The notes under the pieces were generated by a model. The model was given only the letters and a program-made list of their open reading frames with translations. It searched no databases and was not told where the DNA came from. The position numbers were made by a program, and so were the translations under genes. Of a DNA stretch of 287 nucleotides, positions 1 through 287 are shown piece after piece (the first letter of the stretch is position 1; the number at the start of each line of letters is the position of its first letter). The DNA is from Escherichia coli (GTDB lineage: Bacteria; Pseudomonadota; Gammaproteobacteria; Enterobacterales; Enterobacteriaceae): NCBI RefSeq assembly GCF_003334335.1, contig NZ_QOWQ01000225.1; one strand, 5' to 3'.

Positions 1-287
1 GCCCCTTCAATGACTCTGTCCACCACATTTCCCCGGTGCGGAACACGCACTTCCCCCAGAGACTGACCACAGACGCATCCGTTCTGGCAGACGAACCTGA
101 AGTAACCCGGCAGCATCTGGTAGCTGGAGGTACCGTCATGAGAGTTGAGCAGAATAATTTCAGGGACATGTTCTCCGTTTATCTCTCCGGCCCGCCGCAG
201 ACGCAGCATGTGTTTTGTGTATCCCCGGCGGCCCGGGTCGCGCACACGGGTCTGGCAGGCGAAGAATGGCTGAAAGCCTTCCCGCTG
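1..287 (-). CDS. Internal fragment of a DUF932/UPF0380-family protein (YafZ/YfjQ-like, prophage/integrative-element associated); partial at both ends
   Basis: Seen in sequence: the complement frame with codons aligned to forward 285-287 is open for 95 codons (forward 3-287, plus 2 leftover bases at 1-2); the other two minus-strand frames each contain stops (TAA and TGA). Leucine codons are 5 CTG and 1 CTC, and TTA/CTA/TCA are absent. Translation: QREGFQPFFACQTRVRDPGRRGYTKHMLRLRRAGEINGEHVPEIILLNSHDGTSSYQMLPGYFRFVCQNGCVCGQSLGEVRVPHRGNVVDRVIEG. Established knowledge / recall: the segments EIILLNSHDG..SYQMLPGYFRFVCQNGCVCGQSLGEVRVPHRGNVVDRVIEG match my memory of UPF0380/DUF932 proteins (E. coli YafZ, YfjQ). 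No database search was run, so the family assignment is a recollection. No start or stop codon of the gene lies in the window. Confidence 0.7.

Follow-up and report, generated by a model that had tools for sequence, protein, structure and literature searches.

The minus strand of a 287-nt stretch of Escherichia coli DNA (hereafter the window, meaning the whole stretch that was analysed) encodes a peptide in which three cysteines fall within seven residues, spaced C-x3-C-x-C. A preliminary description of the window had read these closely spaced cysteines, together with a fourth elsewhere in the fragment, as a possible metal-binding or redox-active site that could serve as a functional handle on a protein family. 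We asked which gene the fragment belongs to, whether its cysteines are conserved together or singly, and what the residues around them and the genomic setting suggest about function.

An Internal Fragment of a DUF932 Gene

Frame 1 of the minus strand is open over all of the window (95/95 codons) and reads QREGFQPFFACQ...GYFRFVCQNGCVCGQSLGEVRVPHRG...; stops are present in the other two minus-strand frames, and the remaining short ORFs on either strand are few and encode 22-42 aa. The window DNA is 100% identical to part of an annotated coding sequence of 272 aa, WP_001234620.1 ('DUF932 domain-containing protein', strain E2865), of which it covers residues 57-151, and it is likewise 100% identical in many E. 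coli chromosomes. In full-length numbering the four cysteines are C67, C123, C127 and C129. The peptide FVCQNGCVCGQ is encoded at window positions 69-89 and the cysteine of FFACQ at 255-257, so that the preliminary description had the positions and residue numbers of all four cysteines exactly right (codons at 87-89, 75-77, 69-71 and 255-257). The features to which we refer below are as follows.

1-287, minus strand: internal fragment of a DUF932/UPF0380 gene (YafZ/YfjQ/YgeB family), codons 57-151 of 272, from the open frame, Pfam PF06067 and identity to WP_001234620.1
255-257, minus strand: C67, codon TGC; Cys fixed in the enterobacterial clade only
210-212, minus strand: H82 codon, a near-invariant His (at least 95% in four homolog groups)
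132-146, minus strand: N-S-H-D-G loop, residues 104-108, predicted between strands 3 and 4; from conservation in alignment A1 and DSSP of the model
78-101, minus strand: family signature [FY]-R-x-[VI]-C-x-N-G, here F-R-F-V-C-Q-N-G, residues 119-126; C123 and N125 invariant, G126 at least 90%
87-89, minus strand: C123, codon TGC, fragment residue 67; the sole family-invariant Cys, in 418/418 aligned homologs branches with 24-29% identity among them
75-77, minus strand: C127, codon TGC; a recent, lineage-specific Leu-to-Cys change; L, M or I in most homologs, with a Leu codon (CTG or CTC) in each of yfjQ, yafZ and F ygeB
69-71, minus strand: C129, codon TGT; Cys fixed in the enterobacterial clade only
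36-38, minus strand: H140, codon CAC; His invariant in alignment A1 and at least 95% in four groups, its closeness to C123 suggested by the strand order of the model

Every defining feature that we tested identifies the gene as a bona fide DUF932/UPF0380 member. The fragment matches the Pfam PF06067 (DUF932) HMM with an E-value of 1.5e-29 over model positions 27-118 of 227, its homologs carry the same precomputed PF06067 assignment, and PHROG 12094 is matched at E 4.7e-128. The protein is a single domain of 272 aa in which H82, C123-x-N125-G, H140, R208, Q224-E225 and N257 are all present. It shares 74-75% identity with YfjQ (CP4-57) and YafZ (CP4-6) of K-12, and 61% with the 273-aa DUF932 protein of plasmid F, YgeB (orf273), for which YubP, 'F plasmid gene 32' and UPF0380 are given as synonyms (Nature 2024 supplement). 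Both gene and family are already known and annotated, and the cluster as a finding is ordinary. Among NCBIfam models, TIGR03299 reached 18 bits with the fragment, below its cut-off of 110.7, and the full protein had no hit; PADLOC returned zero hits for the protein, and literature searches on DUF932, DUF945, YfjQ/YafZ and YubP/orf273 found no functional study.

The family is large. A scan of 1.84 billion representatives at E <= 1e-3 yielded 5341 clusters at 50% identity, and four distant PHROG families (1221, 21518, 1362 and 38703) match a core of approximately residues 78-169 with weaker E-values. The protein is basic, with a pI of 8.9-9.5 among the chromosomal paralogs. At the DNA level, an Rfam scan of the window gave a single sub-threshold chance hit, and the short direct repeats in it are 10-13 nt long and occur in two copies each. 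One of them, a 13-nt repeat with one mismatch (window 83-95 and 251-263; TCTGGCAGACGAA / TCTGGCAGGCGAA), underlies F-V-C-Q and F-A-C-Q and is probably a chance two-copy match.

One Invariant Cysteine Among Four

Conservation of each cysteine was counted in one joint alignment of 418 sequences drawn from four sets: 100 full-length cluster representatives at 36-52% identity (set A), 120 relatives of a Curvibacter-phage copy, which shares 25% identity with the query (set B), 120 relatives of a Flavobacterium-phage copy at 28-29% identity (set C), and 78 close enterobacterial homologs at 74-100% identity (set D). This sample covers part of the DUF932 family, namely the nearest 150 of the 5341 clusters plus two distant branches. 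The counts were as follows.

Position 123: Cys in 100/100 of A, 120/120 of B, 120/120 of C and 78/78 of D; never another residue
Position 127: Cys in 7/100 of A, 0/120 of B, 0/120 of C and 14/78 of D; otherwise L (59) or M (25) in A, I in B, L in C and L (64) in D
Position 129: Cys in 15/100 of A, 0/120 of B, 1/120 of C and 78/78 of D; Ala in 120/120 of B and 119/120 of C
Position 67: Cys in 8/100 of A, 0/120 of B, 0/120 of C and 78/78 of D; otherwise A, M or S

C123 was never replaced by Ser, Ala or Val in the 418 sequences, which extend down to 24% identity. The preliminary description had recognised that poor conservation across homologs would tell against its proposal, and this is what we found for three of the four cysteines, C127, C129 and C67. 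C123, C127 and C129 occur together in 15 of the 418 sequences, and 14 of those 15 are the nearest relatives of the query. YfjQ, YafZ and F YgeB read VC(Q/T)NGLVCG, with the Leu codon CTG or CTC in place of the TGC of the window. With an average of 1.26 cysteines per protein in the Flavobacterium-phage branch, C123 often stands alone there, and a multi-cysteine site cannot be a feature of the family. The proposed cluster therefore does not survive as a metal or redox site shared across the family, while the narrower idea of a cysteine as functional handle remains tenable at a single residue, C123. To judge from these alignments, the trio is very probably not a conserved site; instead, positions 127 and 129 behave like small hydrophobic positions that tolerate Cys, and the preference for aliphatic residues at 127 points to a place in the buried core. 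Extra cysteines arise sporadically and independently across homologs. The protein contains no CxxC motif.

How, then, did three of four cysteines come to lie so close together? Under random placement in 272 residues, three of four within seven residues has p ~0.005, and p = 0.036 when the 95-aa fragment alone is considered. The clustering is thus mildly unusual, and phylogeny accounts for it: one constrained cysteine, one clade-specific cysteine and one recent Leu-to-Cys change. We propose that the spacing is a by-product of history around C123, in which C129 and C67 would have become Cys in the enterobacterial lineage (elsewhere these positions are mostly Ala, otherwise Val or Ser) and C127 would be a recent replacement of Leu, Met or Ile.

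The low p-value could also be taken to favour a metal or redox site peculiar to the CP4-44-type copy, formed by C123, C127, C129 and perhaps C67 on top of the single-cysteine site of the family, that would modulate activity, for instance as a redox switch. Consistent with this, the three-cysteine version is kept in large clusters (P0018, with 18,561 members, and P0026, with 7,588), an unrelated representative (P0221) also has C-x3-C-x-C, and the predicted positions of C127 and C129 at i and i+2 around a strand should make their side chains face alike. However, position 127 is Leu in the paralogs YfjQ, YafZ and F YgeB, and in the diverged representatives C127 is found with C67 or C129 no more often than chance would give. 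The residues found at 127 and 129 in most homologs, aliphatic or small, suggest buried core rather than metal ligands, and the E. coli cytoplasm is reducing, which counts against a redox site. We consider a paralog-specific site of this kind quite unlikely. C67 and C129 show weak co-occurrence among the diverged representatives (Fisher p 0.017 without correction for phylogeny).

Predicted Fold and Residues Conserved With C123

An AlphaFold2 model built on alignment A1 is confident (mean pLDDT 94.3, pTM 0.90). It consists of a helix at residues 49-58, a run of five to six strands (61-68, 82-88, 96-104, 112-120, 125-128 and 136-138) and a helical C-terminal half. In the model, C123 sits in a turn of four residues that joins strands 112-120 and 125-128, C127 is within the second of these strands, C129 lies immediately beyond it, and H140 follows strand 136-138. 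An antiparallel meander of these strands would gather R120, C123, N125 and H140 at one end of the sheet, and would put H82, N104, H106 and D107 at the opposite end.

The predicted fold has no solved relative in the searches that we made. PDB sequence and profile searches gave nothing meaningful, and a Foldseek search of the model against the PDB had zero hits at E <= 0.001; rows for Rad52, Cas12f and Rad50 were scattered, with probability <= 0.05, and were dismissed. Against AFDB50, 727 clusters were matched at E <= 0.001. The best 50 of these 727, from taxa that include Proteobacteria, Nocardia, Geobacter, Legionella and Protochlamydia, were all DUF932/DUF945, 'F plasmid protein 32-like', or unnamed or mislabelled homologs, and no characterised family was among them. 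Because neither a solved structure nor an annotated enzyme family resembles the model, the chemistry of the protein cannot be borrowed from a relative.

C123 is one of several strictly kept residues. At least 95% conservation in all four homolog groups was observed for P29, T49, G60, H82, G117, C123, N125, H140, R208, Q224, E225, G230 and N257, and R85, R87, E99, N104, G108, G126, D211, R245 and W261 are in addition near-invariant in alignment A1. R120 is present in 88/101 sequences of A1 and in 120/120 of the Curvibacter branch. Within the N-S-H-D-G loop, conservation in A1 is 94% for N104, 90% for H106, 86% for D107 and 94% for G108. Many of the invariant residues are polar or charged, which would fit a binding or catalytic site. 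As a separate observation, D107 (window 135-137, minus strand) is kept as Asp by at least 86% of distant homologs and by 120/120 of the Curvibacter branch, and among close enterobacterial homologs it is Gly in 31/78 and Ser in 3/78, the acidic residue having been lost in one close subclade.

From this pattern of conservation, we consider C123 to be probably a functional-site residue, with a probability of roughly 0.6. An invariant cysteine can also be purely structural, and C123 might be kept for tight packing of the hairpin turn in a non-enzymatic binder, such as an ssDNA-binding factor or a mimic of DNA or protein. Yet Ser, Ala and Val never take its place while neighbouring core positions vary freely, and the His, Asn, Arg, Gln and Glu residues that are invariant along with it are more typical of catalysis or ligand binding, so we regard a structural role alone as unlikely. 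In the reading that we favour, C123 together with N125, H140, H82, R208, Q224-E225 and N257 most likely makes up a single polar site, catalytic or ligand-binding, where C123 would be either a nucleophile or one ligand of a His-rich metal site. Our confidence in any specific chemistry for C123 is low.

Carriage on Mobile Elements

In strain E2865 the gene lies on a CP4-44-like island, in the order Ag43, IrmA (split by IS66), DUF905, DUF932, antirestriction protein, RadC, DUF987 (YeeT), CbeA-type antitoxin and CbtA toxin. Homologs are carried on CP4-57 and CP4-6, in the leading region of IncF plasmids, in phages and in ICE modules. A copy with about 62% identity is present in at least 5000 plasmid records, of which 4458 are predicted to be conjugative; the IncF order is ssb, DUF905, ParB-like, psiB, hok, (ygeA), DUF932, SLT gene, oriT and traM, and in F itself ygeB adjoins the SLT gene ygfA, one gene from oriT. 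A survey of leading regions found DUF932 to be the third-largest family (family number 3, with 4661 members), in T-strand orientation and at a median position of 1 from oriT (Nature 2024). Outside the enterics, the gene occurs in an ICE-type module with ParA, ParB, topoisomerase III and a methylase, and also in blocks of small early-type phage genes, including those of the jumbo phages GAP32 and CBB.

Several neighbourhoods deserve separate mention. The K-12 genes yfjQ (L015:10711-11574) and yafZ (L016:7098-7961) are preceded by the putative GTPase genes yfjP and ykfA, and the window island has DUF905 upstream. A DNA ligase gene (NAD- or ATP-dependent) lies 0.45-4 kb from DUF932 in unrelated phage contigs, and in Curvibacter-like phages DUF932 is directly upstream of an ADP-ribosylglycohydrolase gene, with a Phage_L5_gp82 gene recurring nearby; phage loci with these neighbours are L008:7271-9202, L010:4371-5255, L019:8570-10426 and L012:6912-7742. 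We found no constant gene partner across taxa, the DNA ligase and the ADP-ribosylglycohydrolase recurring inconsistently. Some database proteins (P0016-P0020, P0022, P0028, P0029, P0038 and P0039) have DUF932 fused to an Ag43-type pertactin/autochaperone, RadC, antirestriction or DUF987 sequence. These are probably deletions or gene-calling artefacts of the islands rather than real architectures.

The island around the window is decaying (L001:4504-7421 and 10968-12484): IS66/ISEc22 splits IrmA, truncation has affected the genes for DUF5983 and DUF957, and an IS110 transposase gene carries a frameshift. Despite this, the DUF932 copy is intact and under purifying selection. The decay of its neighbours and the many fused or truncated database entries could suggest that the gene is itself a remnant in a cryptic island, and that its cysteine pattern has no functional meaning. 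This is very improbable, as its frame is intact, all family-invariant residues are kept, and matches to the window occur in 4455 of 5426 complete E. coli genomes (82%), with a median of three places per genome. Selection also speaks against a remnant: dN/dS is 0.02-0.12 among the chromosomal paralogs, indicating strong purifying selection, with values of 0.08-0.12 for the window copy against the K-12 paralogs and 0.016 for yfjQ against yafZ.

Hints of Function From Plasmid F

The published genetics of plasmid F bear on the ygeA-ygeB pair rather than on C123. In F, the ssDNA promoter Frpo1 drives ygeA-ygeB, and YgeA is transient, being made before the plasmid turns double-stranded (Couturier et al., 2023; PMC9849209). 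Transconjugants amounted to 92.6% for the wild type, 25.2% for delta-Frpo1, 32.7% for delta-Frpo1 delta-ygeAB and 3.9% for delta-ygeA, and a single deletion of ygeB was not obtainable in F (PMC9849209). This pattern suggests that the activity of YgeB is harmful when unbalanced by YgeA, and resembles mutual antagonism. A YgeA homolog was not detectable beside chromosomal or phage DUF932 genes, and F ygeA (orf95, L003:12033-12320) matches no Pfam or NCBIfam family. Plasmid F also contains a 464-nt repeat of 88.8% identity (L003:11553-12012 and L003:6165-6622) that holds Frpo1 and Frpo2, and near the chromosomal DUF932 copies (L001, L015 and L016) no Frpo-like ssDNA promoter sequence was found. 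In a Variovorax preprint, loss of the start codon of a DUF932 gene on an integrated plasmid rose to 50-60% after phage exposure; such selection would fit, indirectly, a protein that lowers host defence.

A Candidate Role in Establishment

Taken with the F-plasmid genetics, the genomic setting suggests a protein that is made very early after mobile-element DNA enters the cell. It would probably act on a nucleic-acid or nucleotide substrate and thereby help the element establish, possibly by countering host defence. A more specific version, which we offer as a tentative and somewhat doubtful reading, is a thiol-dependent enzyme with C123 as its nucleophile that would be made from ssDNA in the first minutes after conjugation delivers the DNA, or in the early phase of phage infection, and would modify or cleave a nucleic-acid or nucleotide target so as to disarm a host response. 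If true, the gene most often found first after oriT in plasmid leading regions would acquire a biochemical function.

Few uncharacterised gene families are as abundant on mobile DNA as DUF932, and a conjugation defect of more than 20-fold is tied to it through deletion of the operon partner ygeA. C123 offers a clean point-mutation handle on a very abundant family with a genetic phenotype, and is the residue worth mutating. Point mutants at C123, H140 and N125 could separate chemistry from scaffolding in plasmid establishment, a process that bears on the spread of antibiotic resistance.

Comparison With Known Systems

Known cysteine-based metal and redox motifs include zinc ribbons, the CxxC pairs of zinc fingers, CxC sites and the CxxC of thioredoxin-like proteins. 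The window protein is like them in having three cysteines within seven residues, and unlike them in that it lacks CxxC, two of the three cysteines are unconserved, and many family members have a single cysteine. The Foldseek and PDB searches gave no fold match to thioredoxin-like or zinc-binding domains. A multi-cysteine metal site of the zinc-ribbon or CxC type was rejected for want of joint ligand conservation, given the rarity of the trio and the predominance of L, M or I at 127, and a thioredoxin-like or CxxC redox protein was rejected since a CxxC on a thioredoxin fold was not found.

Several enzyme families were also considered. Cys-His(-Asn) hydrolases and transferases (papain-like, CHAP and sortase-like) are brought to mind by a composition of one Cys, two His, an Asn and a Gln/Glu. 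They differ in that the PDB searches gave no fold similarity and in that the cysteine here is predicted to lie in the turn of a beta-hairpin and not at the N-terminus of a helix; we treat the analogy as a lead only. The 'RxCxN' motif of MsrB and the P/T/C/R set of peroxiredoxins were set aside, as were the CX5R phosphatase motif, SRAP and the deaminase H/CxE...PCxxC motif; in each case the spacings differ and no such fold was found. A PD-(D/E)XK nuclease would have an alpha-beta-beta-beta-alpha-beta core with a D...(D/E)xK motif, a combination that the protein does not show.

The characterised anti-restriction proteins ArdA, ArdB/KlcA and P1 Dar/Hdf were rejected as relatives because the protein resembles none of them in sequence or fold. 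The 'anti-restriction' label given to the DUF932 family derives from one Foldseek hit out of 4661 members (Nature 2024 table). Other genes of plasmid leading regions (ssb, psiB, ardA, klcA/ardB and the ParB-like yfjB) are like DUF932 genes in region, T-strand orientation and enrichment near oriT, and also in early, transient expression from an ssDNA promoter, but unlike them in sequence and fold.

The remaining comparison is with the UPF0380 relatives YfjQ, YafZ and F YgeB. The window copy differs from all three at position 127, where a Cys in place of their Leu gives rise to the C-x3-C-x-C spacing, and in lying on a CP4-44-like island beside Ag43, where a ygeA partner and an Frpo ssDNA promoter were not detectable. 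It is like these relatives in full-length homology, in length, in all the family-invariant residues and in mobile-element context, beside DUF905, antirestriction and RadC genes.
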